A stretch of DNA of 64,000 nt from an uncultured Gammaproteobacteria bacterium (GCA_963729605.1 CAVSNY010000006.1:441529-505528), one strand, 5' to 3'; shown: positions 1-47,446, numbered from the stretch's first letter. Notes: generated by a model not told the origin, from the letters alone. Made by a program: numbers and translations.

Positions 1-500
1 GCCATGTCCGAACCACGGCCGAAATAAGGGTGACTGGCGTCCTTGGGTCCGGCGACCAACTGAAAAGTTCGCGGTGTACGATCAGCCACTACGGTGACCG
101 GACCGGGGCGTTGCGCGGCCGGCACGCTTGCCGCGGGTTTGGACGGGACCGGGCTGGGCGCCACTACGGCGGGGGGCGCGACTACCGGCGCAGGCGCCGC
201 AGCGGGCGGAACGGCTTCGGCGGTTGGAACAACGTCGGCGGGTGGCGCGGATAAATCGGTTTTATTTTCCGGCGCGGTCTGCGGTGATTCCTCTACCGGC
301 GCGGACGGGGCCTCCGTGCTGCCGGCCTCCGGTTGCGTGAGGGCGTCGTCCGTGGTGGTGGCGACTACACTCGGCGATTGCGCCGACATGACCGGCGCCG
401 GCGCGGCGGTCTGCGCGACCTCTTTCTTTTCACCGGTGGACACACACGCCGTCATCGCCACCGCGATCGCCAGACATAACAATTTACGCTTTGAGTTCAT
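1..500 (-). CDS. Lipoprotein with Pro/Ala-rich linker, 3' end outside the window (not in ORF track)
   Basis: Read by hand: GAGGAG RBS, ATG at 500, MNSKRKLLCLAIAVAMTA-C (lipobox), then a long P/A/E-rich linker and ...TFQLVAGPKDASHPYFGRGSDM, open to position 1. Confidence 0.8.
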   Translation of the reverse strand, partial: MNSKRKLLCLAIAVAMTACVSTGEKKEVAQTAAPAPVMSAQSPSVVATTTDDALTQPEAGSTEAPSAPVEESPQTAPENKTDLSAPPADVVPTAEAVPPAAAPAPVVAPPAVVAPSPVPSKPAASVPAAQRPGPVTVVADRTPRTFQLVAGPKDASHPYFGRGSDM

Positions 501-696: not shown

Positions 697-1398
697 CTAA
701 CGCCAGGGATTCTTAAGCGTGGCGTCGCTCAACGGCGGCGACCAATCCGCGGGCTTGGGCTTGGAGTGGCACTTGGAGCAGGTCTTGGTGGTGATCGGGA
801 AAGAAACCTTGCCATGACACACACCGCACTTCTGTCCCAACAGAATGGCCGACATATTGATTTGGTTGGCCCCTTTCTGCGGGATGAAGATGGCGGGATG
901 ACAGTTGGCGCAGGACAGCCATTCGGTGTGTTGACGATGGGGGAACACCACGTCCGGCACCGAGGCCTTCACCTCGCGGACGATATCCATGTCCATCACG
1001 AAGGGCTCTTCGCTGGAATCGATACGGTCCCAGCGGGGTGAGAGCTTCTTCTCGTCGATGGCCTTCACCCAGTCGACATGATTGCCGAACTCGGTGGTGG
1101 GCAGACCTTTATAGGCCTCCTTAGGCGGCTGGAGAATATGGGTGCCTTCGTTCTCCGGATCGTGATAGCCGCTCTCCGGCGGCGCCGCGTTGGGATCCTT
1201 TTCCTTCTTCAAATTGCGGTTGAAGGTGTTGGAGGACGAGACATCGGCGAGCATCAAGCGTTCGCCGGGCGCCGCCTGCTGCATGGCACCACTAAACAGA
1301 CCCGCGTCCGCGGCGAAGGCGGAAGCAGAAACCAGCAGGGTCAACACCGCTGATCCTACAAAGATTTTCAATTGTTGTGTCATGACCACGCTCCTCAC
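697..1398 (-). CDS. Periplasmic triheme c7-type cytochrome c with N-terminal extension
   Basis: Signal peptide (..SASAFA); VVFPH..H, CANCH, INM..I..G..CGVCH, CSKCH, the pattern of c7-type triheme domains; true start may be ~1383. Confidence 0.9.
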   Translation of the reverse strand: MRSVVMTQQLKIFVGSAVLTLLVSASAFAADAGLFSGAMQQAAPGERLMLADVSSSNTFNRNLKKEKDPNAAPPESGYHDPENEGTHILQPPKEAYKGLPTTEFGNHVDWVKAIDEKKLSPRWDRIDSSEEPFVMDMDIVREVKASVPDVVFPHRQHTEWLSCANCHPAIFIPQKGANQINMSAILLGQKCGVCHGKVSFPITTKTCSKCHSKPKPADWSPPLSDATLKNPWR

Positions 1399-1407
1399 AT
1401 TGACCGG

Positions 1408-1854
1408 TTACTGTTTGGCAGGCTGTTGTGGAGCGTTGAGCGCCTTATAAGGTGGCGACACTAGACGCTGCACGGTGCTCCCGTGAATGTGGGTCGGCGT
1501 GCCAGGTATGCCGGAATGGCACATATTGCAGTTCTCCACGGACCAAGCCACCTCCCCGTTATGGCAAGCGCCGCAGAATTTACCGTCGATGATCTTGGCC
1601 ATGGTGATCTTGTTGCCGCCGGCTTTGAACTCGAATCCCAGGTCGGCATGACAGACCTTGCAAGTGAAACGAATACGATGAAACCAGTGCGGGAATACCA
1701 CGGGACGCATACCGGCCGCGTCGGCGTAATTATTAATGATCACATCGGCATATTCCGCTTTGGCGGGGGTCATGGCCAGCAGGGCCAGTCCCGCTAACAC
1801 CCCCAAAATGGAAAATCTCCATTTGATGCTACGGTCGGCTTTGTAGGACGTCAT
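1408..1854 (-). CDS. Periplasmic triheme c7-type cytochrome c
   Basis: Signal peptide (..PAKA); VVFPHWFH, CKVCH, ITM..I.DGKFCGACH, CNMCH; GAGGAG RBS. Confidence 0.92.
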   Translation of the reverse strand: MTSYKADRSIKWRFSILGVLAGLALLAMTPAKAEYADVIINNYADAAGMRPVVFPHWFHRIRFTCKVCHADLGFEFKAGGNKITMAKIIDGKFCGACHNGEVAWSVENCNMCHSGIPGTPTHIHGSTVQRLVSPPYKALNAPQQPAKQ

Positions 1855-1932
1855 GCACGGTCTCCTCGGTTAATTTGACGTATTATAATTAATCACCAGC
1901 AAACGTGGTAATGGTTTCAAAGAGCAACCCCA

Positions 1933-3684
1933 TTAAAATCGGCGCATCACGCGAAAGTATAAGAGCTGCGAAGCCTCGTGGCCGTTATCCATCCATCTGA
2001 AACTCAGGCTGGCGTCCACCAATCCGATGGTGTAATTCAGGCGGTTTTCCCATTCGTTGCGATCCAAACCCTCACCCGTGGAGGCTTGCGAGAGCCGCAG
2101 GTCGGAGTTGAATTGCAGGCGCGGAATACTGAACAGGGTTTGCTGAAGATAACTGATCTGACCGGTGGTGGTGGTCACCGAGCCGTCATTGGCTCCACCG
2201 GAGAAATCGCGCACCACCGTCTGCAACGTCAAATGGCCCGACAACGTGCTGCGCGCACCCAAGGCCTGATAACGCGAGGCCTGCAAATTCACCAGCTGCT
2301 GCTCATCGCTCAGATCACCGAAATTACGCGAATCCGACAAGGTGAGTTGCACCAGGGTGGTCGCACCCTGAGTGGACGACTGATTCCAGCCCAAGCTTGC
2401 GCTGTGATCCAGGCGATGCTGAGTGGCCTCATCACCGGTGGTCAACACCTCGTTGAAGGCCTGAGTCAGACCCACGCGCAAAGACGATTGCGGGTCCAGC
2501 ATCCACATCCTCTGCGCATCGTGACCCAATGAGGCCTGTAACGACTGGACGTTTTCATCCACGTCGCTCTGGTTTTCCAGCGCGCCGCTGACATACCACT
2601 GATACGTAAAACTCCGCCATTCGATCAGATCGGATTGCAGCAGGGCGCCAAGTCGCTGGCGATGCAGGGTTTGATTGGCGCCATTGATATCCGACTGACT
2701 GAAATTGGCGCTGCCGTCAAAGCGCAGCCGTTTCGAATATTGATAGAAGGCGCCCGCCGTCGCGCCGAAGCTGGCTTGATCGCTGGATTGCGCGGAATTT
2801 TCGCCGGCCATGGTATAGGCGCGCGCGCCCGCGCTGACCGTCCAGCGTTTATCGACCGGCCGCCAGAACGTGAAGCTGGATACCTGGTTGATTTCCGTGG
2901 TGACGGTATCCACCAAGCCGGTCGCCCCTTCGAAGGTGGTATCGAGATGGTAATGGCTGGCCTTGGTGTCGAGCCGGATATCCTCGTTGGGGAAATAATA
3001 ATGATCGACGTCGAGAATGAAATTTTCTTGGTGGCGATCGGTGCGCGACTGATCGGTGGTTTCTATATTGCCGCGGAACAACAAGCGCTGGCGGACCGGC
3101 CGCCAGTCCAATTCCACGCCCATAATTTCGTTTTCATAGGTACCGCTCAGGTCCGAATCCCAGGTGCGCGCACCATATCGCAACTGGGCGCGATGGCCTT
3201 CTTCGGTGATGTACGATTGCCGCAAATCCAAATTGGTGGTTTGGTATTCCGAACCGAACACCCGCACCAGCGGGTTGTAGACCACGGTATTGTCCACCCG
3301 GCTGTCGGTGGCTTGATACAACAAGCGGAAAGGGGTGCGGCTGTCCGGCAACACGTTGAGCATCAGGTCGCCGGAATACACGTCCGAGGTGGTGCTGGTG
3401 CTGGCGTTGCCGTCGTCCAGGTCCGAGCTGTCCTTGGCCAGGGTGGCGCCGCCCTCGACGGTGGCGAACCACGGCTGCCAGATATAAGAGCGTAAGCGCA
3501 GATTTCCCAACAACTGGTTGCTGGTGGCGTCGGTGGTATCGGTGCTGAGCGAACGGAAACTGTAACCCACGCTGCCTGACACATCCACGGGCAAGGCGCG
3601 CGCCGCGGGGCACACGGACACCAGCGCCACCAGCGCCAAGCCCTGGGTGACGTGAGATGCGAACGCAGCACAGACCCGTCTCAT
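1933..3684 (-). CDS. Large outer-membrane beta-barrel (~583 aa), putative porin of a porin-cytochrome conduit
   Basis: Probable start MRRVCAAF at 3684; signal peptide ..PAARA; amphipathic strands throughout; C-terminal YFRVMRRF BAM-type signal; no CxxCH; flanked by multiheme genes. Confidence 0.82.
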   Translation of the reverse strand: MRRVCAAFASHVTQGLALVALVSVCPAARALPVDVSGSVGYSFRSLSTDTTDATSNQLLGNLRLRSYIWQPWFATVEGGATLAKDSSDLDDGNASTSTTSDVYSGDLMLNVLPDSRTPFRLLYQATDSRVDNTVVYNPLVRVFGSEYQTTNLDLRQSYITEEGHRAQLRYGARTWDSDLSGTYENEIMGVELDWRPVRQRLLFRGNIETTDQSRTDRHQENFILDVDHYYFPNEDIRLDTKASHYHLDTTFEGATGLVDTVTTEINQVSSFTFWRPVDKRWTVSAGARAYTMAGENSAQSSDQASFGATAGAFYQYSKRLRFDGSANFSQSDINGANQTLHRQRLGALLQSDLIEWRSFTYQWYVSGALENQSDVDENVQSLQASLGHDAQRMWMLDPQSSLRVGLTQAFNEVLTTGDEATQHRLDHSASLGWNQSSTQGATTLVQLTLSDSRNFGDLSDEQQLVNLQASRYQALGARSTLSGHLTLQTVVRDFSGGANDGSVTTTTGQISYLQQTLFSIPRLQFNSDLRLSQASTGEGLDRNEWENRLNYTIGLVDASLSFRWMDNGHEASQLLYFRVMRRF

Positions 3685-3985
3685 TGTTATTATCGCGCGC
3701 CCCTCAGTGACATATCCCCTCGAAGCCTCCACCCGGCGCTCCCCCGGATGGCGAGCTACAACGCGCGCGCGGACATTGCCCCCGTCCGCCGTCGTGCGCA
3801 TTGCCGCGCGCCGTAAATTTTTTCACCTTAAGCGACCTCGCACCTCAATGCAAGATCACTCGCCCTCAACGACCGGCGCCACTCATTTTTAATCGCCTAG
3901 CGGCGCCCACTCTCCCTTGCCCGCCCTGATGTCGCCCGACAATCCCTCCTTGATCGGGACTGAAAATTAATACATCGGCCGCAAT

Positions 3986-4804
3986 TTATTTATTATGACA
4001 AGTTAAACACACGGCGCTGCCCGCTGGGTCAACGCGAAGGAAAGTGGGGGTCTCATCCACGTGGGGATCATGGCAGGAGCCGCACTCCACATAAGGCTGC
4101 GCCTCGCCCGCATACGCCCCCCGCGTCGCCACCCGGGTATACAGCTTCATATCGGTACGTTCGAAGGATTGAGTCCCCTCGGGGGTATTGACCCACCACA
4201 CCCGGCTGGTGCCCATGATCTCTGAATTGGCGGGATGAAAATCCCGGTCCGCGCCCGGTCCGCCCGCGTTCGACAGTGAATAACCACCACCCGCGTATTG
4301 AATACCGATAGGATGGTCGTTGGTGAGATCCTTGCCCAAATTAGTGATCACCGCCGGCCGGCCGATGCGGCCTTGCGCGGGCCGCGCCTGTCCGCTCCAG
4401 GCCCCGTTGCGAAAACCGGGCACCTGCACGCCGGAGCCCGGCTCGTTGATCAAGGTATCCATGGCTTGCGTGCCGTCGTGGCAGGAAAGGCAGGCGACCG
4501 AGACCGAACCTATCGGCTCGATGGACCCATCGAGGGTGGTGGTGCCGAGTTGATCGTAGGTTTCGTAGCCGGTGGGGTCGATGTTGCGGTTCCATAATGG
4601 AACGGCCGCGCTGGCGTTGGCCCCATGAGGCGTATGACAAAATACGCAGATCTCCCGCGTGCCGTCGATATTGCTCACGGCATTCAGCCCCCCCGCACTC
4701 AAGTTGTGCTTGGTATTAAATACGCCGCCGAGGCTCACGCCCCCCGCCAACCACAGCAGCGTCGCTCCGGCAAAAACCAAAGCGCGATAACCGGTTTTCA
4801 TCAC
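3986..4804 (-). CDS. Secreted tetraheme cytochrome c, OmcE-like
   Basis: Four CxxCH (CVFCH, CLSCH, CGSCH, CLTCH) and four distal-His motifs (NTKH, CHTPH, NDHP, CHDPH); blocks PLWNR, NLGKDLTNDHP, PTFLR..GS..CLTCHNK follow the OmcE order as recalled. Confidence 0.9.
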   Translation of the reverse strand: MMKTGYRALVFAGATLLWLAGGVSLGGVFNTKHNLSAGGLNAVSNIDGTREICVFCHTPHGANASAAVPLWNRNIDPTGYETYDQLGTTTLDGSIEPIGSVSVACLSCHDGTQAMDTLINEPGSGVQVPGFRNGAWSGQARPAQGRIGRPAVITNLGKDLTNDHPIGIQYAGGGYSLSNAGGPGADRDFHPANSEIMGTSRVWWVNTPEGTQSFERTDMKLYTRVATRGAYAGEAQPYVECGSCHDPHVDETPTFLRVDPAGSAVCLTCHNK

Positions 4805-5086
4805 TCGCCCCTTTAAAGGGTTTTCCGCCGTCAGATTTTGTCAACTTAGGCGCTAAGTTACAAGTGTTTAAACTGACTATGGCCATCGGCGCGCAAAACC
4901 TTGTGATTCGCCCGCTTCCAAAGTTAGTCAAAACGGCGCGGGAGCCGAAAATGACCGCGCATCAAAACCAGCGGCCGCGGCCCTTCCCGTCTCAACGCCT
5001 CATCAAACGCGCTTGATTATTTTAGCGACGTCGCCTGACAGTGGAGCAACCGTTGACCGTTCACATCCAACCGGACATATCGACAT

Positions 5087-5116
5087 AAAAAAGGGCGCCT
5101 GCAGGCGCCCTTTTTT
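5087..5116. terminator. Intrinsic terminator of porin 1 (bidirectional form)
   Basis: AAAAAAGGGCGCCT-GC-AGGCGCCCTTTTTT. Confidence 0.85.
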
Positions 5117-5135: not shown

Positions 5136-6182
5136 TTATTTCGAAGAAAATTTATGGTTGATACCCAATGACAGGGCCGACGCATCCTGGCCGGTCACCG
5201 AGTTCAACCTGGTCAAGTCATAATTGCCATTGTCGCCATTGCTCATCAGGTTGTACATCGCGTACAACTCGGTGTTCTTGGTGAAGTTGCGAAACACGCC
5301 CAAGGCGAAATGGGTGGCGCCGGAATCGGCCTCCGAGTCTTTTTCATCGGCCATGGCGACCGAACCCTTCAGCGTATAACCCTCCAGCTTATGGGCCACG
5401 CTCACCAGAAAGGCATTGCGCTGATTGTCGGCGCCGCCCTCATCGGCGCTTTCAAAAATCGCCCCCACCGTGGTGGGACCGAAGGCATAGCTGCCGCCCA
5501 CCTTCATGGCCACCGCATCGTCGCCGTTGGTGTGATAGGCATTGAGCGACTCGTAAGCGGCGGTGAGGTACCAGGGACCGCTGTTGTAACTGCCGTTCAC
5601 GCTGTAGACATCGCGATCGCTCTACCGCGTGGTCATGGGCAGATCGTCATCGCCCCGATGATCGGCAAACACATAGCCCAGCATCGCGCTGAAGCCGTTC
5701 ATGCTCGGCGTCGTGTAGATGATAATGTTGGAGGCGCGGCGATCGAACAATTTATTGCCGTCGTCCACGCTGCCGATGATGGCGTTGAAATCGCCCTTGG
5801 TCTCGGCAAAGATATCCAGCTTGGAGGTGGCCCTTTTATAGGGGGTATCGTGTTTGCCCGCCAGCACCTGACCAAATCCGCCCGTCAGACCCACAAAGGT
5901 GTTGCGCTGGCTGCTGAACGCCGCGCCGTCGTCAAAATCCACCTGCTGCTCGATCTGCCACAAGGCGGCGAGTCCGTTACCCAAATCCTCGTCGCCCTTG
6001 AAACCCAGACGGGAATCGTAGCTGGTCAGACTAATGGCGCTGTCTTCATTGCCCGCCGTGGGGTCATTATTGTTATTGAAATCCAACGAGACATAAGCCG
6101 CCCCATACACCTCCACGCCGGCCTGCGCCAACGGCGCCATCATGGCAGCCACGACACCCGCGGCGATCATATGTTTATTCAT
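5136..6182 (-). pseudogene. Gram-negative porin paralog 1, interrupted by in-frame TAG at 5622-5624
   Basis: ORFs 5622..6305 and 5136..5600 share a frame; joined reading MNKHMIAAG...DLPMTTR*SDRDVYSVNGSY...INHKFSSK is colinear with both neighbouring porins; stop may be a sequencing error. Confidence 0.75.
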
Positions 6183-6363
6183 TATTCCCCCTCGACTATA
6201 TTGAACCCCGTCTAAATCAACCCCGTCGATCAAAAACCGCCTTGCGCCGCGCGCTGGTCTGATGTTGATATCTTCCCGTGAAAAATCAGCACGGTAATCG
6301 CTCAACAGTCTAACAGTAGCGCATAGCCGCCTTTGTCACAACGCTCTCCTGCATGCGTTTCTC

Positions 6364-6411: not shown

Positions 6412-7479
6412 TTATTTGGAGGAGAAATTATGGTTGATACCGACAGATATCGCCGAGACACTCTTGTCGGCAAACCCCGCGACGGCCTGAGAACCCGACC
6501 ACAGGCCGTAAGTGCCGTTGCTATCATTATCCACCTGCGTATAGAGGGCATACACCTCGGTGTTCTTGGTGAATGAATGAAAACCGCCGAGGGTGAGCTG
6601 GGTGGCGCCGCTGCTGCTGATGCCATCCACGTCATCGGCCATCGCGATGGCCGCCTTCAAGCTGTTGTCACCCATTTTGTGCGTTGCACTCGCATACCAG
6701 GCACTGCGTTCACCGTTGGCGCCGCCGCGATCGGCGTTTTCAAACAGGCCCGAGAGCACGGTGCCTTGCCCGAAATTCCACGCCGCGCCGACGCGGTAGG
6801 CGACGCCGTCGTCGTTCGCGGTGAGATTGCCGATGGTCTCGTAGCTCGCAGCAAGATAGAGCGGACCGTTCTCGTAGCCCGCGCCGACGCTGACGAGTTC
6901 ACGTTCGCTGTCGGTGGTGGTCATGGGCAAATCATCGCTGGTGCGATTGAACGAATACGCCGCATGCAGTTTGAGCCCCGCCATATCCGGGGAGGCGTAA
7001 GCCACGATGTTGGGCGTGCGGTTATCGAACAAGCGGTTGCCGCGGATATTGCCGATGATGGCGTTGTAATCGCCTTTGGTATCGGAGAAGGGATCGAAGC
7101 GCGCGGTCACGATGCGTAACGGGGTTTCATAGCGCCCCGCCAGCACCGTACCGAAACCGCCGCCCAACCCGATGAAGGTATTGCGGGCGCTCTGGAAGGC
7201 CGAGCCGGTATCGAAGTCCACCTGGGTCTCGAGCTGCCACAACGCGCTCAAACCATTGCCCAAATCCTCGTCACCCTTGAAACCCAGGCGCGAGGTATTG
7301 CTCGACAGCGACACCGCGCTGTCCTCGTTTCCCACCGTGGGATCATCGTTATTGATGAAGTCCAGCGACATACGGGCCTTACCGTAAACCTCGACACCGG
7401 CCTGCACGGCGAAAGAGGCGCCCACCGCCATCGTCGCCGCTACCGCCGTCACCAGCCCCCTCTTGCTCATCATCTTCAT
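6412..7479 (-). CDS. Gram-negative porin paralog 2
   Basis: Signal peptide, GVEVYG, SRLGFKGDEDLGNGLSALWQLE, RNTFIGLGGGFG, C-terminal VGINHNF. Confidence 0.92.
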   Translation of the reverse strand: MKMMSKRGLVTAVAATMAVGASFAVQAGVEVYGKARMSLDFINNDDPTVGNEDSAVSLSSNTSRLGFKGDEDLGNGLSALWQLETQVDFDTGSAFQSARNTFIGLGGGFGTVLAGRYETPLRIVTARFDPFSDTKGDYNAIIGNIRGNRLFDNRTPNIVAYASPDMAGLKLHAAYSFNRTSDDLPMTTTDSERELVSVGAGYENGPLYLAASYETIGNLTANDDGVAYRVGAAWNFGQGTVLSGLFENADRGGANGERSAWYASATHKMGDNSLKAAIAMADDVDGISSSGATQLTLGGFHSFTKNTEVYALYTQVDNDSNGTYGLWSGSQAVAGFADKSVSAISVGINHNFSSK

Positions 7480-7634: not shown

Positions 7635-8687
7635 TTACTTCGAGCTGAACTTGTGGTTGATGCCCACCGAGAAGGCGGACATGTCTTCGCCAGCAAACGA
7701 ATTGGAGTTACTGAACAGGCCGTAGTTCGCGTTGGCGTCGTTGCTGACCACCGTGTACAGCGCGTACACGTCGGTGTTGGCGGACAGGGCCTGACCCACG
7801 CCCAGCGCGAAGTGGGTCGCGCCGCTGTCGGTCACGCCACCAACTTCGTCGGCCATCGCGACCGAGGCCATCAGGCTGGTGTCGCCCATCTTGTGCTTGA
7901 CGTTCAGCAACCAGGCGTCGCGGTCGCCGTTGGCGCCGCCGACATCGGCACTTTCCCAGATGGCGCCAATGGTGGTCGCGTCCGTGATGGTGTAGGTGCC
8001 GCCGATCTTCCACGCGCTGGCGTCGTCGCCGCCCACACCTGCGGCATTCAGCGACTCATACGCGGCGGTGACGAAGAGCGGCCCATTGGTGTAACCGGCG
8101 CTCAAGCTGTAGGCATCACGGTCGTTGCCGGCCGTGGAGATAGGCAGGTCGTCATCATTATTGATATCAGACAGGATATAGGCCACGCTGGCCTTGAAGC
8201 CGTTCATGTCCGGCGTCATGTAGGCGATGGCGTTGTCGGCGCGGTTGTCGAATACCACGTTGCCGTTCACCGAGCCCATGATCGCGTTGTAGTCGCCGCG
8301 GGTGTTGCGGAACACGTCCATGTAGTTGGTCGACGACTTGTAGGGGGTGCTCAGGTGGCCGGCCAGCACGGTACCGAAGCCGCCGCCCAAGCCGATGAAG
8401 GTGTCACGGGCCGAGGTGTTGGCCGCGCCGGTGTCGAAATCCATCTGCTGCTCGAACTGCCACAGCGCCGACAGACCGTTGCCGAGGTCCTCGTCACCGC
8501 GGAAGCCGATGCGCGACTTGTTGCTGGACAGGCTGATGGCGCTGTCTTCTGCGCCAGCGGTGTTGTCATTATTGGTGACGAAATCAAGAGAGGCGCGGGC
8601 CTCACCGTACACTTCAACACCGGCTTGGGCCGCCAGAGGGGCCGTCAACGCGGCGGCAACACCAAGAGCAATCAACTTCTTGTTCAT
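7635..8687 (-). CDS. Gram-negative porin paralog 3 (probably the major porin)
   Basis: MNKKLIAL signal, SRIGFRGDEDLGNGL, C-terminal VGINHKF; strongly biased codons. Confidence 0.93.
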   Translation of the reverse strand: MNKKLIALGVAAALTAPLAAQAGVEVYGEARASLDFVTNNDNTAGAEDSAISLSSNKSRIGFRGDEDLGNGLSALWQFEQQMDFDTGAANTSARDTFIGLGGGFGTVLAGHLSTPYKSSTNYMDVFRNTRGDYNAIMGSVNGNVVFDNRADNAIAYMTPDMNGFKASVAYILSDINNDDDLPISTAGNDRDAYSLSAGYTNGPLFVTAAYESLNAAGVGGDDASAWKIGGTYTITDATTIGAIWESADVGGANGDRDAWLLNVKHKMGDTSLMASVAMADEVGGVTDSGATHFALGVGQALSANTDVYALYTVVSNDANANYGLFSNSNSFAGEDMSAFSVGINHKFSSK

Positions 8688-8875: not shown

Positions 8876-8949
8876 TGGCTGGGGGACTAGGATTCGAACC
8901 TAGGTTGGCGGAGTCAGAGTCCGCAGTCCTACCGCTAGACGATCCCCCA
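8876..8949 (-). tRNA. tRNA-Gln(CTG)
   Basis: Reverse complement TGGGGGATCGTCTAGCGGTAGGACT-GCGGA-CTCTGAC-TCCGC-CAACCTAGGTTCGAATCCTAG-TCCCCCAGCCA: cloverleaf, anticodon CTG, encoded CCA. Confidence 0.96.
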
Positions 8950-12040: not shown

Positions 12041-13345
12041 TTGCATGCCGACCTTTACCGCCTTTTGAATCAGATTGTTCTTTACTTGCCCTCCGCCGCC
12101 CGCCACTCGTCCTTGCTCAAAACCACCGACCGCTGCGTGATGTGCGGCATGTGCCTGCCGCACTGCCCCACTTATCATCTGACCCGCGACGAGGCCGAAT
12201 CGCCGCGCGGCCGCATCGCGCTCATTCAAGGCGTGTTGAGCGGCCGGCTCGAGCAAACGGCGCGGCTCGAAACCCATCTCGATCACTGCCTCGGCTGCCG
12301 CGCCTGCGAAGCGGTCTGCCCTTCCGGCGTGCCCTACGGCGAGATCATCGACGGCGCGCGGGCCGCGCTCTCGGAACAAGCCCCGCCCGCGCCGCGCTGG
12401 CGGCGCCTGGCTTGGGGCTGGGTCACCGGCGTGATCTCGGACCGGCGCCGCCTCTACCGCGCCGCGCGTGCGTTACGGTTCTATCAACGCAGCGGTCTGC
12501 GGCGACTCGCGCGCCTCACCGGCCTCACGCGCCGCGGCAGCCTCGGGCGTTTGGACGCGCTGCTGCCGCCGTTGCCCACGCCGCGCGCCTGGCCCGCCCA
12601 GCTCCCGGCCCAGACCGAGCCGCGCGGCGAAGTCGGCTTGTTTCTCGGCTGCGTCTCCGATGTGGCGGACCGCGCGACCCTCGATGCCGCCGCGCGACTC
12701 CTGACCCGCCTCGGCTACCGCGTGCACCTGCCGGAGGGGCAAACCTGTTGCGGCGCGCTGCACCTGCATCAGGGCGATCCCGCCACCGCGCAGGCGCTCG
12801 CGCAACGCAATCGCGCGGCCTTCAAGGCGCATGCGCTGGAGACCATCATCTCCGTCGCCAGCGGCTGCGGCGCCACCCTCGCCGAATACCCCGGCCAGAA
12901 CGGCGCGGCGCTGGGCGCGCCGGTGCGCGACATCAGCGCGTTTTTGCACGGCGTCAGCTGGCCGGAAGACATCCGCTTCGCGCCGTTGCGCAAAAAGGTC
13001 GCGGTGCAGGACCCTTGTTCGCTGACCCACGTGCTGCGGCAAAACCAGGCGCCTTATTCCCTGCTGGCGCGCATCCCGGAGATCGAACTCATCGCCCTGC
13101 CCGACAACCGCCGCTGCTGCGGCGCGGCGGGCAGTTACATGCTCACCCAGCCCGCGATGGCGGAAAAACTCCGCGACGAAAAAATCGCCGCGTTAAAGGC
13201 CAGCGGCGCCGAGATCCTGCTCACCTCCAACATCGGCTGCGCGCTGCATCTGAGGGCCGGCCTACGCGCGGCGGGGATGGAGATCGAAGTCATGCACCCG
13301 ATTGCGTTGCTGGCGCGGCAGTTGCGAACAGCCGGTACTGTGTAA
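12041..13345 (+). CDS. glcF: GlcF-like Fe-S oxidoreductase (2x[4Fe-4S] plus CCG domains)
   Basis: [24 protein letters not shown], two CCGA motifs, TSNIGC; start uncertain. Confidence 0.8.
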
Positions 13346-13406
13346 AGTCGATTTTCCGTCCTTTAATACTTGCAACTTACCGCCTACAACTTGTAACTTT
13401 GCTCGC

Positions 13407-14051
13407 ATGAATACACGCCGCTACAGCCCGCTCGATCAATGCCTCATTCACCTCGACAACGCGGTGCGCACCGTGTGGGGCGCGCCCGCCGTCACCGAGC
13501 GCGCCGACCCCGCCGATGTCATACCCGAAGGCGATTTGAGCGACGCCGAAAAACGGCTGTCCGCCGGCCTGATGCGGGTCAATCACGCCGGCGAGGTGTC
13601 GGCCCAAGCCCTTTATCAAGGCCAGAGCCTCACCGCCAAACTGCCCACGGTGCGCGAGAAGATGGAACGGGCGGCGCGCGAAGAAAACGATCATCTCGCC
13701 TGGTGCGAACAACGTTTGCAGGCGCTGGACAGCCGCGTCAGCCTGCTCAGCCCGCTGTGGTATGGCGGCTCATTCGCCATCGGCGCCCTCGCCGGTCTCG
13801 CGGGTGACAAATGGAGTCTGGGTTTCGTGGTGGAAACCGAGCGGCAGGTGGTGAAGCACTTGGAGGAACACCTGCAACGGCTACCCACGGCGGACCACAA
13901 AAGCCGCGCCGTGCTGGAACAGATGAAGGAAGACGAACTCCACCACGCCACCACCGCCCTGCAAGCGGGCGGCGCGGAATTGCCGGCGCCGGTGAAGAAG
14001 CTGATGGCCGCGACGTCGAAAGTCATGACCACCACGGCGCGGTTTATTTAG
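13407..14051 (+). CDS. coq7: Demethoxyubiquinone hydroxylase (Coq7)
   Basis: Start MNTRRY at 13407; [19 protein letters not shown]; [10 protein letters not shown]; DELHH di-iron motifs. Confidence 0.95.
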
Positions 14052-19557: not shown

Positions 19558-20814
19558 TTAAAAGCGGAAACCCAGCTGGAGACCGGCGCCCACCTCGTCG
19601 CTGTTACCCATCGCGGCGATGTCGACATGGACGCCGAAAGGCGAGAGACCCACGCCCACCGACGCCACGCTGGTGTCGCTGTCGCTGATGTTGTGGCGAT
19701 AACCCAAGCGCAGCTGCACCGTATTCCAACCGTTCCATTCGGCGCCGACCGCCCAATATTGGGTGGGGCCGTCGAGGCCGGCGGGATCGTTCTCCACCAA
19801 ATCGAGATCGGTCGCCACGGTGAGGGACTTCCATTCATAGGCCAGGCCCAAACGGTATTGCGGGTCGAGGTTGATGGTATTGCCCAAGACGGTCCGGTAT
19901 TCCCGCGGGATCAGATTCTTCGCCACCAGGCCGGTGGTCCAGCCGTTGCCGTAACGATGCGCTATACCGACATCCAGATTAAAGTCGGTGTATTCTTTTT
20001 CGCCCTCGTCCACCGACAGGTCGGCGGTGTCCACGTCCAGACGGTAGTCGAAGGTTGTGGCCTGCACCACTTTCGGCGTGATGCCGATCGCCACGCCCTG
20101 ACCGCCGAAGGTGAACTCACGCGCCAGCGACACGCCTATTTCGGACAAGACCACCCCACGCCCCTGCACCGAGGACGTCATAGTATCGGTGGGGTCGATA
20201 ATGTCGCCGTTGCCGTCCACGATGCCGGACGTGTCATTGGCTTCCAAACCGTCGATCACCTCATTGAGCTCGTTAATATCGGATTGGGTGATGTCGAGCA
20301 AGGCCCCGCCCATGGCGCGCGCGTTCACGTACAGCGACGCGCCGAAACGCTTGCTGGGCACGCCCACTACCGCGCCGACGTGCAGCTCGCCGTCCACCGT
20401 TTTATTGGAAAGGGTACCCAAACCATTCACCAAAGCGCGGCCGGTGGCCACCACCGCATCTTTGGCGGTGTTCAGTTCACCGGCCGTGGTGGCATTATTC
20501 CATTGATCCACCGCGTTGCTGAACGCGTCGATATAATCGGCCGATTGGAAATCGTCCAGGCTGTCCACCATCTCATCGGGATCGGCGACCCGCGCGCCGA
20601 TCACCGGCAACTCGAGACTGAAATCCTCGCCCTCACGGCCGATGGCCAACAAGGCCGGATTAAAAAAACTGGCATTGGCGCTGGTGCCCGACGCAACCCC
20701 GGTACCGCCCATGGCCATGGAGCGCGGGTCGAAGGCGCCGAAGGAAACCGCCCCCGCCTCCTGCATCGTCAACAACACCACCGGCAAGCCCATCAATAAA
20801 ACGCGTTTGTCCAT
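19558..20814 (-). CDS. TraF_2-family outer-membrane beta-barrel protein
   Basis: Start MDKRVLL; DPRSMAMGGTGVA..NPALLA; C-terminal LQLGFRF; no conjugation genes nearby. Confidence 0.8.
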   Translation of the reverse strand: MDKRVLLMGLPVVLLTMQEAGAVSFGAFDPRSMAMGGTGVASGTSANASFFNPALLAIGREGEDFSLELPVIGARVADPDEMVDSLDDFQSADYIDAFSNAVDQWNNATTAGELNTAKDAVVATGRALVNGLGTLSNKTVDGELHVGAVVGVPSKRFGASLYVNARAMGGALLDITQSDINELNEVIDGLEANDTSGIVDGNGDIIDPTDTMTSSVQGRGVVLSEIGVSLAREFTFGGQGVAIGITPKVVQATTFDYRLDVDTADLSVDEGEKEYTDFNLDVGIAHRYGNGWTTGLVAKNLIPREYRTVLGNTINLDPQYRLGLAYEWKSLTVATDLDLVENDPAGLDGPTQYWAVGAEWNGWNTVQLRLGYRHNISDSDTSVASVGVGLSPFGVHVDIAAMGNSDEVGAGLQLGFRF

Positions 20815-21090
20815 ATATCCCTCTCCAAATAGCCACGACTCCGACGCACGGCTCGCACCCGCCACGCCACCATGCTTGGCTATCGTCCCGCAAGGGGGTC
20901 GACTTTAGAGAGGTAGGCGGGGCCGAATCGAGAAACGGAACCCACATCCTGAGGCCATCGCCGCAGGCATTGACCGCGGCTGCCGCTGCAAGGCAGGGTG
21001 GCAAATCCAGCGCACCAATATCCGGCAAGACCCGGTTTCCGATTGCCGACTCTTTTTCAGCATTAAGCAGTACCACTGGCACGGATTCTC

Positions 21091-21307: not shown

Positions 21308-22078
21308 ATGGCAAGAACCGGGACGTATTTCTGGAATAAAAAATTATTAATCGGGGCCGTCGCCGCCCTTGGCGCGACCACCGTCCAGGCGGTACCCACC
21401 ACCTACACCAGCCGGGCCGCCTTCGACGCGGCGATCGCCGCCATCGTCCCCGCCGTGAACCAGAACGTAATCAACTTCGAGAGCGCGTCCGGCGGCGATT
21501 TGATTCCAAGCGGGTCCAGTTTCGGCGGCGTCACCTTTTCCTATACCCTTCCCGGCGGCCCACCTCCATTCCAGGTCGGCATCAATAGCAGCCCGCTCGC
21601 GGGAACCTCGGGCTCCAACTTTCTTGGGGTGACCAACGACGGCGGCGCCAGCTTCGGCCAATTCGCTTTGGGTGATCAGATAGATTTCAGCTTCTCCGCA
21701 TCCCACGCCTTCGGTATGTACATCATCGTCGGGGATACCTCCTTCGATTTCTTCAATGACGACATCAATCTGACTTTCGCCGGCATCACCTTGTCCAACG
21801 TGGACGCGGACGTCGCAACCAGTGTAGGCCCCAACAATGTCGCGGCTCTGTTCGTTGGCATCGTCGATCCTGACGGCACCTATGGCACCGCCAGTCTGCT
21901 CTTCGGCCCGGTGGGCGGCCCGGCGGGCGGCGCCTTCTTCGAGATAGACGACATCGTCAAAACCTCCCCCACCGGAAGCGGCGGCGGCGACGACGGGACC
22001 ATTCCCGAACCCGCGACCCTGGCCTTGTTGGGCGCGGGTATTCTGGGCATCGCCCTGGCACGCCGTAAAAAAAGATGA
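21308..22078 (+). CDS. PEP-CTERM exosortase-target surface protein
   Basis: Signal peptide; C-terminal IPEP-ATLALLGAGILGIALA-RRKKR; AAGGAG RBS. Confidence 0.95.
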   Translation: MARTGTYFWNKKLLIGAVAALGATTVQAVPTTYTSRAAFDAAIAAIVPAVNQNVINFESASGGDLIPSGSSFGGVTFSYTLPGGPPPFQVGINSSPLAGTSGSNFLGVTNDGGASFGQFALGDQIDFSFSASHAFGMYIIVGDTSFDFFNDDINLTFAGITLSNVDADVATSVGPNNVAALFVGIVDPDGTYGTASLLFGPVGGPAGGAFFEIDDIVKTSPTGSGGGDDGTIPEPATLALLGAGILGIALARRKKR

Positions 22079-22396
22079 CGCGGCGGTAAAACGCGCAGGC
22101 AGCGGGCATGGAGGCCGGCGAATATTCCATCGGCGCTCCACCCTTGTTTCCTCTCCTTCCACATCGTTTACCGGATAACGCGAACGCGGTACACCGGCTA
22201 GTTTGCCGCGCTCCGATCATCGCCCCGCTTGATCAAACCGGACGGCGACATCAACGACGACCTATCGCCCGCCCACGCGGAAAAAATCCGGTTGTCGATT
22301 TTTGAACGGCGTACACTCGTATATTCCCGCATCGTGCAAACCATGCAGAGGTCACCGCAACCAAATCAACAAGCAAACACTCAAGGAGGAATCACC

Positions 22397-23061
22397 ATGG
22401 AAAAGGTTTCAAAGAACGCCCTCCAGGGCCTGGCCCTGGCCCTCGCCACCTTCGTGATGACGCCCGGCACGGCGTCGGCGTGCAACACCGAACCCTTTTT
22501 GGGAACGGTCTGCGCCTTCGGCTTCAACTTTTGCCCGCGCGGCTATCGGCCCGCCGATGGTTCGCTCCTACCCATCAGCCAGAACACCGCCCTCTTCTCG
22601 TTGCTCGGCACCACCTATGGCGGCAACGGCACCACCACCTTCGGCCTGCCGGACTTGCGCGGCCGCGCCCTGGTGGGAGCGGGCCAAGGCCCCGGCCTCT
22701 CCCCCGTCAATCTCGGCGAGATGGCCGGCACCGAACAAGTCACCTTGACGGTGAATCAACTACCGCCCCATAGCCACTCGGCCACGACCGACGTGACCGT
22801 CACCACAACGGCGCGTGCCTTGGGATCGGCCGGCAATACCGACAATCCCAACGGCAACAGCCTGGCGATGGTGTCCCGGCAAAATATCTACAGCAACGCC
22901 GCGCCCACCGTGAACATGAGCGCCAACGCCATCGCCACCACGGCCAACGCCACCACCACCATCGCGCCCACCGGCGGGGGCAACCCATCGAGAACCGATC
23001 GCCTTACCTTGGCATCACTTATTGCGTCGCGGTGGAAGGCATCTTCCCTTCGCGCAACTAA
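22397..23061 (+). CDS. Secreted tail-collar-domain (MdpB-like) protein; apparent 1-nt deletion near 22980
   Basis: AGGAGG RBS; EPFLG..FGFNFCPRG..ALFSLLGTTYGGNGTTTFGLPDLRGR; conserved end QPIENRSPYLGITYCVAVEGIFPSRN* lies in another frame. Confidence 0.85.
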
Positions 23062-23149
23062 GCCAAGCGCCATGCTCATTCACGCCTGCGCTTAAACGCA
23101 GGCGTGAATGCAATGCGGTGCGGGGTTTATCGGTACGCCATGCGGCGGC

Positions 23150-26932: not shown

Positions 26933-28171
26933 ATGTTCATGTTGTTCGGCCGACCGCTATGCGCGGTTGGCTTCGCTGTGGTCGCCACAGCAATCACGCT
27001 GGCACTGCCAGCAAGGGCCGAACCCGCCCCACCTTATGAAACACTGATCGAGCATCTCGATCGAACCCCGGCAACACTTGAAGCCGAAGCATTACTCGAT
27101 GCCGCCAAGGCGCGCGCGCAACAAGCCCGTGCGTTGCCTAATCCTTCCATCTCCCTGGAGGCCGAGAACGCTTACGGTCGCTCGCCGTTCACTGGCTATG
27201 GCGCCGCAGAGACCACGTTTTCCGTCAGTCAACCTCTGGAACTGTGGGGACAGCGGGGCGCGCGAATCGGTGCCGCACGGGCGGAAGCCGAGGCGGCCGG
27301 CCTGCGCCGCGACCAGTCGCGATGGGCGGTCGCCGGCCGCCTGGCGCTGATCTATGCCGAAGCGGAAGCAGCCTCTTTGCAGCATGAGCTGGCCATTGAG
27401 GCGCTGTCGCTGACGCAGGCGGATGCAAGCGCGGTGATGGCCCTGGTGGAAGAAGGTCGCGAGGCTGTGCTTCGTGGGGTTCAGGCCGAAAGCGAGGTGG
27501 AAGCTGCTCGCGCCGTCGCGGACGAAACACGGGCAAACCGGGATGCAGCTTTCGCGCGTCTCGCCGCAGTCGCGATGCTGACCGAGCCGGTCACATCCAT
27601 CGAAACCAGCCTGCTAAATCGCGCACCCAACCCCTTCACGCCGGATGTACGCAATCCCCTGGCTGTTCAAATTGCCGAGGCCGAGTTGGATGCGGCTGGT
27701 GAATTCGTGAACGTGGAGCGACTGCGTGCTCGTCCCGACGTGACCGCTTCGCTCGGTGTCCGGCGATTCGAAGAATACGACTCCCAAGCACTCACCTTCG
27801 GCATCAGCGTGTCCCTTCCGCTGTTCGACAGAAACACAGGCGCTATCAGTGCAGCCCGTGCCGAGCAGCGAGCTGCCGAGGCGCGGCTGACCGGTTTGAA
27901 GTTGGAGGTCCAGGCAGATCGCAGTGCTGCACAAGCCCGCCTCACTGCATCGATCACCCGGACACGTGCTGCCGATAACGGCGTCGCTTCTGCCGAAGAA
28001 GCCTACCGCCTTGCACGCGCTGGCTTCGATGCCGGGCGCATCTCGCAGTTGGAGCTGCGCAGCATACGGTCTGCTTTGATTGCCGCACGCAATACCGCTG
28101 TGGATGCACGCATAGCGCGCGTCCGTGCAGAAGTCGAACTCGCGCGCCTTGACGGCCGCACCCCATTTTGA
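26933..28171 (+). CDS. czcC: TolC-family outer-membrane factor of a heavy-metal RND pump
   Basis: Signal peptide; ARALPNP; SQPLELWG; SVSLPLFDRN. Confidence 0.88.
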   Translation: MFMLFGRPLCAVGFAVVATAITLALPARAEPAPPYETLIEHLDRTPATLEAEALLDAAKARAQQARALPNPSISLEAENAYGRSPFTGYGAAETTFSVSQPLELWGQRGARIGAARAEAEAAGLRRDQSRWAVAGRLALIYAEAEAASLQHELAIEALSLTQADASAVMALVEEGREAVLRGVQAESEVEAARAVADETRANRDAAFARLAAVAMLTEPVTSIETSLLNRAPNPFTPDVRNPLAVQIAEAELDAAGEFVNVERLRARPDVTASLGVRRFEEYDSQALTFGISVSLPLFDRNTGAISAARAEQRAAEARLTGLKLEVQADRSAAQARLTASITRTRAADNGVASAEEAYRLARAGFDAGRISQLELRSIRSALIAARNTAVDARIARVRAEVELARLDGRTPF

Positions 28172-28181
28172 GGAAGCATAG

Positions 28182-29369
28182 ATGACAACCACAAATATCC
28201 GGCTCCTCTGTGGAGCAGTCCTACTTGCTGCCCTTGGTACTGGCTTCGGCCTTGCCCAGCTCATCCCGTACTCGGAGCACGCCGCTCACGTCGAGGATGA
28301 TGAGCACGCCGCTCACAATGATCCTGACCAACAGAATGAGCACGAGGATGCGCCATCCGAGGAAGGTGTCGTCGCATTAACCGCGAGGCAAATCGAAGCC
28401 TCGGGTATCAGCATCGTAGACGTGGGCCGCGGCGGCGGTAACGAGTATCGGCTGTCAGGCCGGGTCGAGTCTGCAGTGGGCGCTCGGGCAGTCGTAGCGG
28501 CAATCACGGGCGGAAGGGTCGAGCAGATACACGTCGCTCCGGGCTCATCGGTTGAAGCCGGTCAGCTCCTGGCTGTCATAGTCAGTGGCGATGCAGCTAC
28601 TTTGCGTGCAAACGCCGATGCAGCAGTTGCCGAGGCCGAAGCTGCGCGCCTCGCTTATCAGCGCGACTTGAACCTCGTCGAACAGGGGATTGTCGCTCGT
28701 CAGGACATGGAAGCGTCTCGCGCCCGCTCACTCGCCGCTGATGCGGCGGCAAGGGCGGCACAAGCTCAGGTCGCGGCAAGCGGTTCGCCGAATACCTCGG
28801 GACGCTTCAGCGTCGTCAGCCCAATCGCGGGTGTAGTCGGCGCGGTCAGTACCACTGTGGGTGGCTTCGTCGCATCTGGTGGAGCCGTCGTGGAAATCTC
28901 CGATCCGGCGCAAGTGGAACTCGTCTTCAACGCGCCTCCCGCATTGGCATCCGAGGTGACCTCTGGAGCTCGTCTCCAAGTCACAGGTCCGTCTGGCAGT
29001 TTCGAAGCTGTGGTCGTTGGCGTAGCCGCCAATGCGCGCGAGCAAAGCGGTGCAGCCGTTATTCGCGCGCGATCTACTTCAAGTGCCTTACCGCCTGCTG
29101 GGTCCCCCGTGACAGGGACCGTCGTCACAAACAGCCAGGAAGGTGGTCTGACCGTCCCCGCCGATGCCGTTCAAACCGTGGAGGGGCGATCAGTGGTCTT
29201 CGTAGTCGAGGACAATGGCTTTCGCGTCACGCCCGTGCTCGTGGGTCGGCGCGCAGGCGGATACATCGAGATCCTCAACGGGCTGTCGGGCGATGAACGC
29301 ATTGCCAGCACGAACGCCTTCCTATTGAAGGCCGAACTCGCTAAAGGCGAGCTCGAGGACGACGACTGA
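28182..29369 (+). CDS. czcB: RND membrane-fusion protein with His/acidic N-terminal region
   Basis: HAAHVEDDEHAAHND..EHED; SPIAG; VPADAVQTVEG; FLLKAELAK. Confidence 0.88.
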   Translation: MTTTNIRLLCGAVLLAALGTGFGLAQLIPYSEHAAHVEDDEHAAHNDPDQQNEHEDAPSEEGVVALTARQIEASGISIVDVGRGGGNEYRLSGRVESAVGARAVVAAITGGRVEQIHVAPGSSVEAGQLLAVIVSGDAATLRANADAAVAEAEAARLAYQRDLNLVEQGIVARQDMEASRARSLAADAAARAAQAQVAASGSPNTSGRFSVVSPIAGVVGAVSTTVGGFVASGGAVVEISDPAQVELVFNAPPALASEVTSGARLQVTGPSGSFEAVVVGVAANAREQSGAAVIRARSTSSALPPAGSPVTGTVVTNSQEGGLTVPADAVQTVEGRSVVFVVEDNGFRVTPVLVGRRAGGYIEILNGLSGDERIASTNAFLLKAELAKGELEDDD

Positions 29370-29379
29370 GGATAACCAT

Positions 29380-32300: not shown

Positions 32301-32652
32301 GTCGGGAGTGGCGACACTCAACGGCCTGGTGCTGATGCAGGCGATTCGCGAACGCCTGACCGCTGGCGATTCACCGCTGGAGGCCGCTGCCGCCGGCGCG
32401 GCCAGTCGCCTGCGTGCGGTGCTGACCACGGCGCTCGTTGCGATCGTCGGCTTCATCCCGATGGCGATCGCTACCGGCTCCGGGGCCGAGGTGCAAAAGC
32501 CGCTGGCCACCGTCGTCATCGGTGGTCTGATCACGGCTACTGTACTGACCTTGCTGGTATTGCCAACCTTCGCCGCGCGAGCTACGAAGCCGAGGGTCAA
32601 TAGCACTGCCAGTTCAGAAGGGACCGCTAAACCGCTGGAGTCCGCGCCATGA
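29380..32652 (+). CDS. czcA: CzcA/CusA-family heavy-metal RND permease (divalent-cation type)
   Basis: LPIDAVPDITN; GNLMSLGALDFGILVDG; GAEVQKPLATVVIGGL; His-rich loop. Confidence 0.95.
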   Translation: MFKIIIETAVRFRWAVVFVATLIAAYGLFQLTKLPIDAVPDITNRQVQINTIAPALAPGQIERQVTYPLETALAGIPGLTNTRSISRNGFSQITAIFTDQTDIYFARQQVAERMREVLEDLPEGVTPMMSPVTTGLGEVLMWTVDYTPFDPENVGQPNEPGWQTNEIYLTPEGDRLTTPEERATYLRIVQDWIIAPQMRSAPGLAGVDTIGGYVKEYAIRPNAERLAAYGLGLGDLVQALERSNVQAGAGFIQRAGEGLIVRTDALAQTVDDLAQAPVANRDGFVIRVSDVASVGLGRAPRLGAASRDGHEAVLGTALMIADGNSRTVAQAAAERLVEVNRSLPPNIVAEPVLDRSELVNSTIKTVAKNLTEGALLVIAVLFLLLGNFRAAAITALVIPLSFLFAVIGMNRFGISGNLMSLGALDFGILVDGAVIVIEATLLMLGQKRAELGRALSASERLGVAIQAARKMVRPAAFGQIIILLVFAPILTLEGVEGKTFQPMAATLMLALVGAFILSFTFVPAMAALFVREPKTKPEHIPEQEHDHRHDGEHETRLIRYVRGKVEPVIRIAVTRPRAVLAGAVLMLAIGLVAFMSLGREFMPTLDEGNLAMQALRVPSASLEQSLSMQLALERALTSEPEVRTVFSRTGTAEAAIDPMPVNISDSVIMLKPRSEWPDPSLDKEELIGRLESIVGNQIGNAFEFSQPIELRFNELISGVRTDLAVMVFGDDFDIMQRVADQVALTLRGIEGAADLRVEQVSGLPTLTVRVDHAAAAQYGLTAADVSETVATGIGGTSAGRIFEGDRRFDVVVRFDEDARNDPAQLAALPIVAPDGTVVPLSSVARIEVREGPNQISRNNGSRRIVVQANVRGRDLGGFVGEAQAAVADVSLPPGVYLTWGGQFENLQRAEARLMLVVPIVFLLIGSLLYMALGTIREAALVFVCVPLALVGGALALLLRDMPFSVSAAVGFIAVSGVATLNGLVLMQAIRERLTAGDSPLEAAAAGAASRLRAVLTTALVAIVGFIPMAIATGSGAEVQKPLATVVIGGLITATVLTLLVLPTFAARATKPRVNSTASSEGTAKPLESAP

Positions 32653-36524: not shown

Positions 36525-36620
36525 GACTATAAGACCTCTTCAGGAATAAGCGATACTTCGCGACTTAATGTGCGAGCACGAACCCATCCGCGCGTCGCGA
36601 TGAATACAATATTTTTCGGG

Positions 36621-38760: not shown

Positions 38761-38836
38761 GCGATGCCCGGGCCTTCCAGGGGAATCGGGTCAGGTGGCT
38801 TCAACCAGCAGCTTATCTAGCTGGACCTGCCAGAAT

Positions 38837-38876
38837 GATGACACGGAGATTACAAAAATGTAATCGCAATGTCATC
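38837..38876. promoter_or_regulatory. Cop/CusR box in the divergent copR / DUF305 promoter
   Basis: GATTACA-AAAA-TGTAATC (38848-38865) nested inside GATGACA...TGTCATC. Confidence 0.8.
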
Positions 38877-38933
38877 AGAATGACAGCGACAGCTCCTCAG
38901 GATGACCATTGAAGCTGGAGAAAGGGATTCGAG

Positions 38934-44370: not shown

Positions 44371-44431
44371 TCGATGCGATGAAACGGCCAATGTCCCCGG
44401 TGACCTTCGGGATCAAGAGGAGAACACAGTC

Positions 44432-47436: not shown

Positions 47437-47446
47437 GGCCCTCCTT

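Follow-up and report, generated by a model that had tools for sequence, protein, structure and literature searches.

Does a group of multiheme cytochrome genes in an uncultured gammaproteobacterium encode the parts of an extracellular cytochrome nanowire? The question is raised by a stretch of 64,000 nucleotides (nt) from an uncultured Gammaproteobacteria bacterium (GCA_963729605.1, CAVSNY010000006.1:441529-505528), called here the window, whose left end carries genes for a tetraheme cytochrome, a large beta-barrel, two triheme cytochromes and a lipoprotein. An initial annotation had proposed that the tetraheme resembles OmcE, the subunit of a Geobacter nanowire, and that the barrel exports or anchors a filament of it. 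By comparison with related genomes, the locus corresponds to the half of a uet (undecaheme electron transfer) cluster nearest the promoter, namely uetA, C, D, E and, probably, the start of uetF. Sequence matches and a structural model indicate that UetA is a true OmcE homologue with the full set of bis-His ligands. The further step, that the uet locus is an OmcE-type nanowire machine with UetA polymerising through or on the barrel UetC, stands in our judgement about an even chance of being right. In this favoured explanation, the uet cluster would be the form that the OmcE nanowire gene cluster takes in proteobacteria.

All cluster genes were located on the minus strand of the window by a check of open reading frames (ORFs) and motifs. 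The co-oriented series of tetraheme, barrel, two trihemes and lipoprotein described in the initial annotation is present as claimed, in coordinates and in strand. In the list below, PPIase stands for peptidyl-prolyl isomerase.

3986..4804, minus strand: uetA, secreted OmcE-family tetraheme c-type cytochrome (272-residue precursor; ORF and motifs)
3685..3985, minus strand: uetA-uetC spacer of 301 nt, where relatives have the PPIase gene uetB of about 1.1 kb
1933..3684, minus strand: uetC, large outer-membrane beta-barrel (583 residues from the ATG at 3684)
1408..1854, minus strand: uetD-like periplasmic c7-type triheme cytochrome (148 residues; three CxxCH at 65, 94 and 109)
697..1398, minus strand: uetE-like c7-type triheme cytochrome (233 residues; three CxxCH at 163, 191 and 207)
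3..500, minus strand: 5' part of a uetF-like lipoprotein gene (first 166 residues; cut by the left window edge)
5087..5110, minus strand: hairpin GGGCGCCTGCAGGCGCCC followed by TTTTTT, at the end of the upstream porin gene, read directly in the sequence

The intergenic gaps from uetA through uetF measure 301, 78, 9 and 196 nt. A consensus scan listed no terminator-like site in these four gaps and two promoter-like sites, for a chance expectation of 2.2. The same scan missed the hairpin at 5087..5110, which was found by direct reading. Since this hairpin and its T-run terminate the preceding porin gene, uetA would need its own promoter within 4805-5086.

An OmcE-family tetraheme

The UetA precursor has a hydrophobic N-terminus and CxxCH motifs at residues 53, 105, 241 and 266, with no Cys elsewhere, which gives exactly the four heme motifs initially counted. 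The count of four candidate distal His needs a small correction: besides the His of its CxxCH motifs, the precursor contains five (33, 60, 164, 190 and 248), of which four are conserved. In an alignment of 120 UetA homologues, down to 36% identity, all 8 Cys and H33, H57, H109, H164, H245, H248 and H270 are invariant, H60 is conserved in at least 90% of the sequences, and H190 is not conserved. H33, H60, H164 and H248 align to His in both solved OmcE chains, and from the ligation described in PMC13712944 they are the putative heme ligands of UetA. We also considered UetA as a nine-His anchor subunit, an idea suggested by the same paper. Nine His are indeed present, but this candidate was dropped because H190 is not conserved in the UetA family.

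Compared with the sequences of the PDB, UetA matched 9yuq_N (the OmcE bundle of Desulfuromonas soudanensis) with an expectation value (E) of 7.8e-28 and 7tfs_A (the OmcE nanowire of Geobacter sulfurreducens) with E 4.9e-24; beyond these two there was no match below E 0.2. The order of motifs that the initial annotation gave for OmcE (TKH, CVFCHTPH, PLWNR, CLSCHDG, NLG.DL.NDHP, ECGSCH, FLR, CxxCH.K) can be followed residue by residue in these alignments, while Pfam recognised only the doubled-CXXCH motif at the C-terminus. An AlphaFold2 (AF2) model built with the 120 homologues had a mean predicted local distance difference test score (pLDDT) of 76.8, with values above 90 across most of residues 160-250. 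Foldseek returned 167 PDB matches to this model at E<=10, of which 7tfs alone had E<=0.001 (E 3.2e-8, TMt 0.67, TMq 0.52). The comparison with the OmcE filament suggested in the initial annotation has thus been made by alignment and by predicted fold, and UetA matches both solved chains and the 7TFS fold. Hence, we place UetA in the OmcE family on account of the PDB sequence matches, the 7tfs fold match and the conserved ligand set.

Cluster type, barrel and missing uetB

To place the locus among its relatives, a pattern scan covered one genome each for 185,579 species and gave at least 637 candidate stretches, at least 563 of them encoding a relative. The synteny analysis used the best 80 of these at least 563 related loci. 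A locus with a complete cluster (L005) served as the query and is excluded from the counts. Genes were counted by tblastn when they lay downstream of uetA and in its orientation, and the denominators are the loci with enough downstream sequence. The nearest species-representative loci among those listed belong to metagenome-assembled genomes (MAGs) that bear the labels Gammaproteobacteria, Candidatus Tenderia sp. and Chromatiales; their UetA proteins are 66-72% identical to that of the window. Strains of Aromatoleum toluolicum, Ramlibacter and Noviherbaspirillum are also among the related loci listed.

According to Pfam, the complete cluster of L005 encodes a tetraheme, a SurA-like PPIase, a barrel, two c7 trihemes, a 541-residue protein, a third triheme, two NHL propellers and a large multiheme cytochrome, in the order described for uetABCDEFGHIJ. 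Its proteins are collinear with the window by tblastn, at 68% identity for UetA, 45% for UetC (E 2.4e-145, the best identity found for this protein), 84% for UetD and 76% for UetE. The resemblance to the Uet cluster, which the initial annotation had raised as a caveat, is therefore borne out, as the genes of the window match uetA, C, D, E and, probably, the start of uetF of this complete cluster. The frequency of each gene downstream of uetA was as follows.

UetB: 72/76 loci
UetC: 59/69 loci (tblastn)
UetD: 62/68 loci
UetE: 59/65 loci
UetF: 52/60 loci
UetG: 56/60 loci
UetH: 49/57 loci
UetI: 48/55 loci
UetJ: 38/54 loci

A profile made from 41 UetC sequences found 68 barrel ORFs in 67/80 loci. 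A lack of conserved synteny with the barrel had been named as evidence against the proposal. The barrel is on the contrary a regular companion of uetA, both by tblastn and by profile. These sequence comparisons show that many Pseudomonadota share the arrangement uetA-(B)-C-D-E-F-G-H-I-J. By analogy, UetG, the NHL propellers UetH and UetI, and the undecaheme UetJ are expected to be encoded immediately beyond the left edge of the window.

We also observed a second, divergent OmcE-like paralogue, with 29-37% identity to the UetA of the window, upstream of uetA in many betaproteobacterial loci. It lies at about 1.5-2.5 kb in L019, L022, L028, L031, L034, L035, L040, L042, L046, L053, L059 and L061, and at about 4-6 kb in L007, L010, L012, L020, L044 and L056.

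The uetC reading frame is open over 3801..1933 for 622 residues, and the plausible start at the ATG at 3684 gives 583 residues, with a basic-hydrophobic, signal-peptide-like leader ending in ...AARA and the C-terminus RVMRRF. A barrel of about 583 residues with a terminal Phe is thus confirmed. The AF2 model, built with 41 homologues from the related loci, has a mean pLDDT of 91.4 and 28 strands of at least 11 residues, which makes UetC a large outer-membrane barrel; the Tenderiales preprint (10.1101/2022.05.06.490989) also gives 28 predicted strands. UetC had no match in Pfam, NCBIfam or the PDB sequences, and a fold search returned generic large barrels only (TonB-dependent transporters, LptD, FimD and MtrB), the best template modelling score (TM-score) among PDB chains being that of MtrB (6r2q_B, TMq 0.40). 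The nearest clusters of the ESM Atlas carry an automatic label, TIGR03016 ('PEP-CTERM system-associated outer membrane protein'), which we did not adopt because NCBIfam gave UetC no match at E<=0.1.

Both trihemes have signal-peptide-like starts and pass the curated cut-offs of the two c7 families. The UetD-like protein scores 59 bits with PF14522 (E 4.1e-16; cut-off 24.8) and 68.6 bits with TIGR04257 (E 3.8e-19; cut-off 40), and the UetE-like protein 45.1 bits (E 8.8e-12) and 62.8 bits (E 2.5e-17) with the same two families. In the UetE-like protein, the c7 domain occupies residues 145-212, after an N-terminal extension of about 140 residues. Both proteins align to PDB 3ov0, the UetD-like one with E 4.9e-43, most strongly to the third domain, and the UetE-like one with E 4.9e-29. 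Each c7 domain aligns to all four domains of this chain, best to the third and fourth. We take 3OV0 to be the GSU1996 dodecaheme of G. sulfurreducens; the database entry says no more than cytochrome c family protein. The cut-offs and these alignments agree with the initial description of the trihemes as GSU1996-type c7 domains.

The lipoprotein read from 500 to 3 consists of a signal peptide ending in ...AMTAC (Cys19), a long Pro/Ala-rich linker and the first residues of a conserved domain. Its last 25 residues match residues 130-154 of the UetF of L005 (48% identity, E 0.003), and the domain itself lies beyond the window edge. UetF homologues from 8 loci are built alike, with a lipobox, a low-complexity linker and the motif F.V....KD.SHP[FY][FY]G.G, and the window lipoprotein ends within this motif of the first domain.

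The uetB-less layout is the only peculiarity of this copy of the cluster. A complete UetB used as tblastn query had no match in the 64-kb window at E<0.5, and the spacer holds no remnant of the gene. The spacer of 301 nt compares with a smallest uetA-uetC gap of 1067 nt among 60 related loci. Since there is no UetB match in 64 kb and the gap is this short, the copy has, as far as sequence can tell, lost its PPIase gene or never had it. We also looked behind uetA for a terminator or attenuator as a route to excess subunit expression and found none; the spacer is mildly structured, its RNA folding somewhat better than shuffled sequences (z -2.63).

Filament, conduit or remnant

The gene for the undecaheme UetJ would fall outside the window, and its relatives bear on how UetA may work. 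The first ~295 residues of the UetJ of L005 align with the UetA of the window (32% identity, E 1.3e-25). When four tetrahemes and five undecahemes were aligned, the columns of all heme motifs and ligand His of this module were invariant, and the undecahemes run on past its last CxxCH.K with seven more hemes. UetJ-type undecahemes were observed among the proteins P0307-P0389 and at the following positions.

L005:19259-20800
L076:13365-15422
L078:4646-6997
L072:17346-20168
L048:15575-17716

A search with the UetA module limited to longer proteins gave 3148 matches at E<=0.001 among 8000 scored. We counted 119 of the 120 listed long matches (P0233 was left out): eleven CxxCH occur in 76 of them and four in 35, and the module is N-terminal in 83 of the 119, including a 582-residue eleven-heme protein of Geomonas oryzisoli. 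For comparison, the Tenderiales preprint (10.1101/2022.05.06.490989) describes UetJ as lacking other conserved domains. Two non-proteobacterial loci, L076 in a Deltaproteobacteria MAG and L078 in a Binatia MAG, have a minimal cluster made of a propeller lipoprotein, an OmcE-like tetraheme, a Phe-ending large outer-membrane protein, a second propeller lipoprotein and an undecaheme. They resemble the smallest omcE clusters of PMC13712944.

The UetA-like module also occurs in other arrangements. It is followed by a SurA_N (UetB-like) domain in P0233 and preceded by an NHL/6-bladed propeller in P0274, and many proteins of 545-650 residues have a FecR domain (PF04773) ahead of it. These proteins (P0233, P0274, P0273 and some 25 others like them) may be genuine fusions, or separate genes merged in gene calling.

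In the favoured mechanism, UetA would be exported by the Sec pathway and loaded with heme in the periplasm, and would then pass through, or mount on, the UetC barrel. It would polymerise head-to-tail like OmcE, with a His from one subunit serving as the missing ligand to a heme of the next, as described for OmcE filaments (PMC9473688, PMC12954529, PMC13712944). The product would be an insulated heme chain outside the cell, and the periplasmic trihemes UetD and UetE, together with UetG, would shuttle electrons between the respiratory chain of the inner membrane and the base of the filament. The sequence does not set the direction of electron flow; for the closest relatives described, Tenderiales and Gallionella, electrons are assumed to be taken up from cathodes or Fe(II).

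Several observations weigh against a UetA wire. To our knowledge, filaments have been demonstrated for three Desulfuromonadia species only. The identity between UetA and 7tfs is modest, 26% over 244 Foldseek columns, and the AF2 model is weak at residues 1-60 and 120-150. A conserved beta-rich stretch of about 40-55 residues (~179-236, pLDDT >90) is unaligned to either solved OmcE and could alter or block the filament interface. Family membership alone does not imply a wire, because the OmcE family, with 4129 clusters at 50% identity (E<=0.001), is a very large one and includes solitary uetA homologues with no uet neighbours (L032, L033 and L075). The barrels of the minimal clusters are not detectably related to UetC: hhalign of the 41-UetC profile with the barrel of L076 gave a probability of 9.7%, the corresponding hidden Markov model (HMM) had zero matches in L076 or L078 at E<=10, and homology of the proteobacterial and delta-type barrels is hence unsupported. 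Finally, this copy lacks uetB and may be impaired, or may use a chaperone encoded elsewhere. A complex prediction of two UetA chains (residues 27-272, with 4 of the 8 hemes of a dimer supplied) scored 0.01, against a mark of 0.42, and carries no weight either way.

The alternative that survives best is a porin-cytochrome conduit without a filament. UetJ would then thread UetC as MtrA threads MtrB, and UetA would be a monomeric or small-oligomer surface cytochrome that passes electrons on, similar to MtrC. This is close to the model of the Tenderiales preprint (10.1101/2022.05.06.490989), where UetJ is the heme wire and UetC the sleeve, and it agrees with the finding that MtrB has the top TM-score for the UetC model among PDB chains (TMq 0.40). 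From the rise of 34 A per OmcE subunit (PMC12954529), eleven hemes would be long enough to span the membrane and one tetraheme would not, and UetJ stands alongside UetA in 38/54 loci with enough sequence. However, the filament is the only known state of UetA's homologue and UetA keeps the full set of ligand His, the signatures of the MtrA and MtrB families are all below cut-off, and an N-terminal UetA/OmcE-like module in UetJ fits co-assembly with UetA better than a pairing of the MtrA/MtrC type. We regard the conduit as possible, but on balance doubtful.

A more tentative proposal, which we consider unlikely as it stands, would keep the filament and give UetJ a place in it. With its complete OmcE-like head, UetJ is by sequence a candidate for the base or the tip of a UetA filament. 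The OmcE/UetA wire would then be a heteropolymer with UetJ as its end subunit, either a base threading the 28-strand UetC towards the trihemes or a tip, and the window would hold the half with subunit, barrel and charger, in a PPIase-less variant. What anchors or caps OmcE wires is asked in PMC13712944, which states that omcE operons encode no tip candidate. If true, the heteropolymer would answer this question of how the OmcE nanowire starts, ends or is anchored. The answer would apply to metal reducers and equally to Pseudomonadota that make ubiquinone (coq7), among them the host of the window, whose relatives have been described as lithotrophs that take up electrons.

The absence of uetB, which directly follows uetA in 72/76 relatives, together with a uetA-uetC gap whose counterpart is below 1067 nt in no related locus, could also mean that this is a decayed or incomplete copy, a possible non-functional remnant from which uetB was deleted. 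There is decay nearby too, as the adjoining porin paralogue has an in-frame stop. We nevertheless think a remnant improbable, as the four complete genes are intact with all heme motifs and ligand His in place, a 97%-identical UetA in the protein database (P0001, with 15 member sequences) suggests a maintained gene, and UetB would be replaceable by general periplasmic chaperones. Very little credence can be given to a purely periplasmic chain of soluble tetraheme and trihemes beside an unrelated porin: Sec-type signal peptides alone take cytochromes no further than the periplasm and the barrel has no family assignment in Pfam, NCBIfam or the PDB sequences, but a barrel that follows uetA, with uetB between, in 59/69 loci (67/80 by profile) is too constant for a chance neighbour, and the solved homologues of UetA are extracellular (PMC13712944).

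The initial annotation was right on homology and on the type of locus, and mistaken in taking the nanowire reading as the new part. The Tenderiales preprint of 2022 (10.1101/2022.05.06.490989) already raises conductive polymers of UetA or UetJ as a possibility, and OmcE homologues that have a large barrel and a propeller lipoprotein encoded nearby are reported in a 2026 mBio paper (PMC13712944) for five phyla, mainly Thermodesulfobacteriota and Pseudomonadota. We found no paper linking Uet or UetA with OmcE under those names; both words occur in PMC12575090, in unrelated places. If UetA-type proteins do polymerise, cytochrome nanowires would not be limited to anaerobic metal reducers but would be common in Pseudomonadota, and their carriers would include near relatives of a lineage that oxidises cathodes and is probably autotrophic. 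The uet cluster would in that case join two literatures that name one machine differently, Uet for iron and cathode oxidisers and OmcE for Geobacter. The loci of Aromatoleum toluolicum, Ramlibacter and Noviherbaspirillum would provide cultured hosts for assembly tests. Taken alone, the window is a small gain, being one more copy of the cluster, notable only for the missing uetB.

The rest of the window encodes coq7, trp genes, porins, copper and RND efflux systems, and regulators. The coq7 gene at 13302-14051 (PF03232, E 7.7e-48) agrees with the initial description of a ubiquinone-using host. The porin paralogue upstream of uetA (5136-6305, minus strand) is the first of three tandem Porin_4 copies (5136-6305, 6412-7479 and 7635-8687), and it has a single in-frame stop (...PMTTR*SDRDVY...) where its paralogues read through, either a nonsense mutation or a sequencing error. 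A tRNA-Gln (CTG) gene at 8876-8949 (minus strand) lies just upstream of this array. Further along are a TraF_2-family outer-membrane protein (19558-20865) and a PEP-CTERM-tagged protein (21308-22078), which adjoins a phage tail collar domain protein (22229-23095). A dense copper and metal resistance region at 34194-52300 encodes a P-type ATPase (HMBD/YHS domain), CusS/R-type two-component genes, a CopA-like multicopper oxidase, CopB, CopD, DUF411 and an RND system of the CusC/B(F)/A type. Outside this region, 26933-32652 encodes another RND system and 57726-60227 another P-type ATPase.

Comparison with known systems

The closest known system is the uetABCDEFGHIJ cluster of Candidatus Tenderia electrophaga and other Tenderiales, which has the same proteins in the same order, including UetA, the 28-strand UetC, UetD and UetE, and a lipoprotein UetF with a Pro/Ala-rich linker (10.1101/2022.05.06.490989), which the lipoprotein of the window resembles over the part that is present. 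The cluster is also reported from six Gallionella genomes (PMC10734462). The window differs from the Tenderiales cluster in having no SurA-like PPIase gene uetB between uetA and uetC, and it ends inside uetF, so that uetG-J would lie beyond it.

OmcE of G. sulfurreducens (7TFS) and D. soudanensis WTL (9YUQ) is the homologue of UetA: both have four CxxCH and four distal His, which follow each other in one order, and, as far as the monomer model shows, the same fold. UetA is about 40 residues longer and has the conserved beta-rich stretch at ~179-236 that is unaligned to OmcE. The OmcE gene cluster comprises OmcE, a large beta-barrel, two beta-propeller lipoproteins and two multiheme cytochromes (PMC13712944). 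In this cluster as in the uet locus, the gene of the large barrel adjoins that of the subunit (301 nt downstream in the window), and the relatives of the window match the propellers with two NHL propellers and a further multiheme cytochrome (NHL/6-bladed propeller by Pfam in L005). In addition to these parts, the uet version has three c7 trihemes, UetF and, in most cases, a PPIase. The hosts differ as well, since that of the window makes ubiquinone (coq7), whereas the solved OmcE filaments come from anaerobic Fe(III) reducers (PMC13712944).

With the conduits of the MtrCAB and PCC type, the uet locus shares a common logic of multihemes in the periplasm, a large barrel in the outer membrane and a cytochrome on its outside. 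However, the locus in the window has no decaheme, and no match to an MtrA (MtrA/DmsE), MtrB or MtrC family comes up to its cut-off (TIGR03508, 27.6 bits for a cut-off of 192.2; TIGR03507, 17.3 for 209.3). UetC has 28 predicted strands, compared with 26 for MtrB as quoted in 10.1101/2022.05.06.490989. Finally, relative to GSU1996 and the PpcA-type cytochromes c7, the trihemes of the window are single-domain proteins, whereas GSU1996 has four domains on a string, and the UetE-like protein differs further from GSU1996 by its N-terminal extension of ~140 residues.

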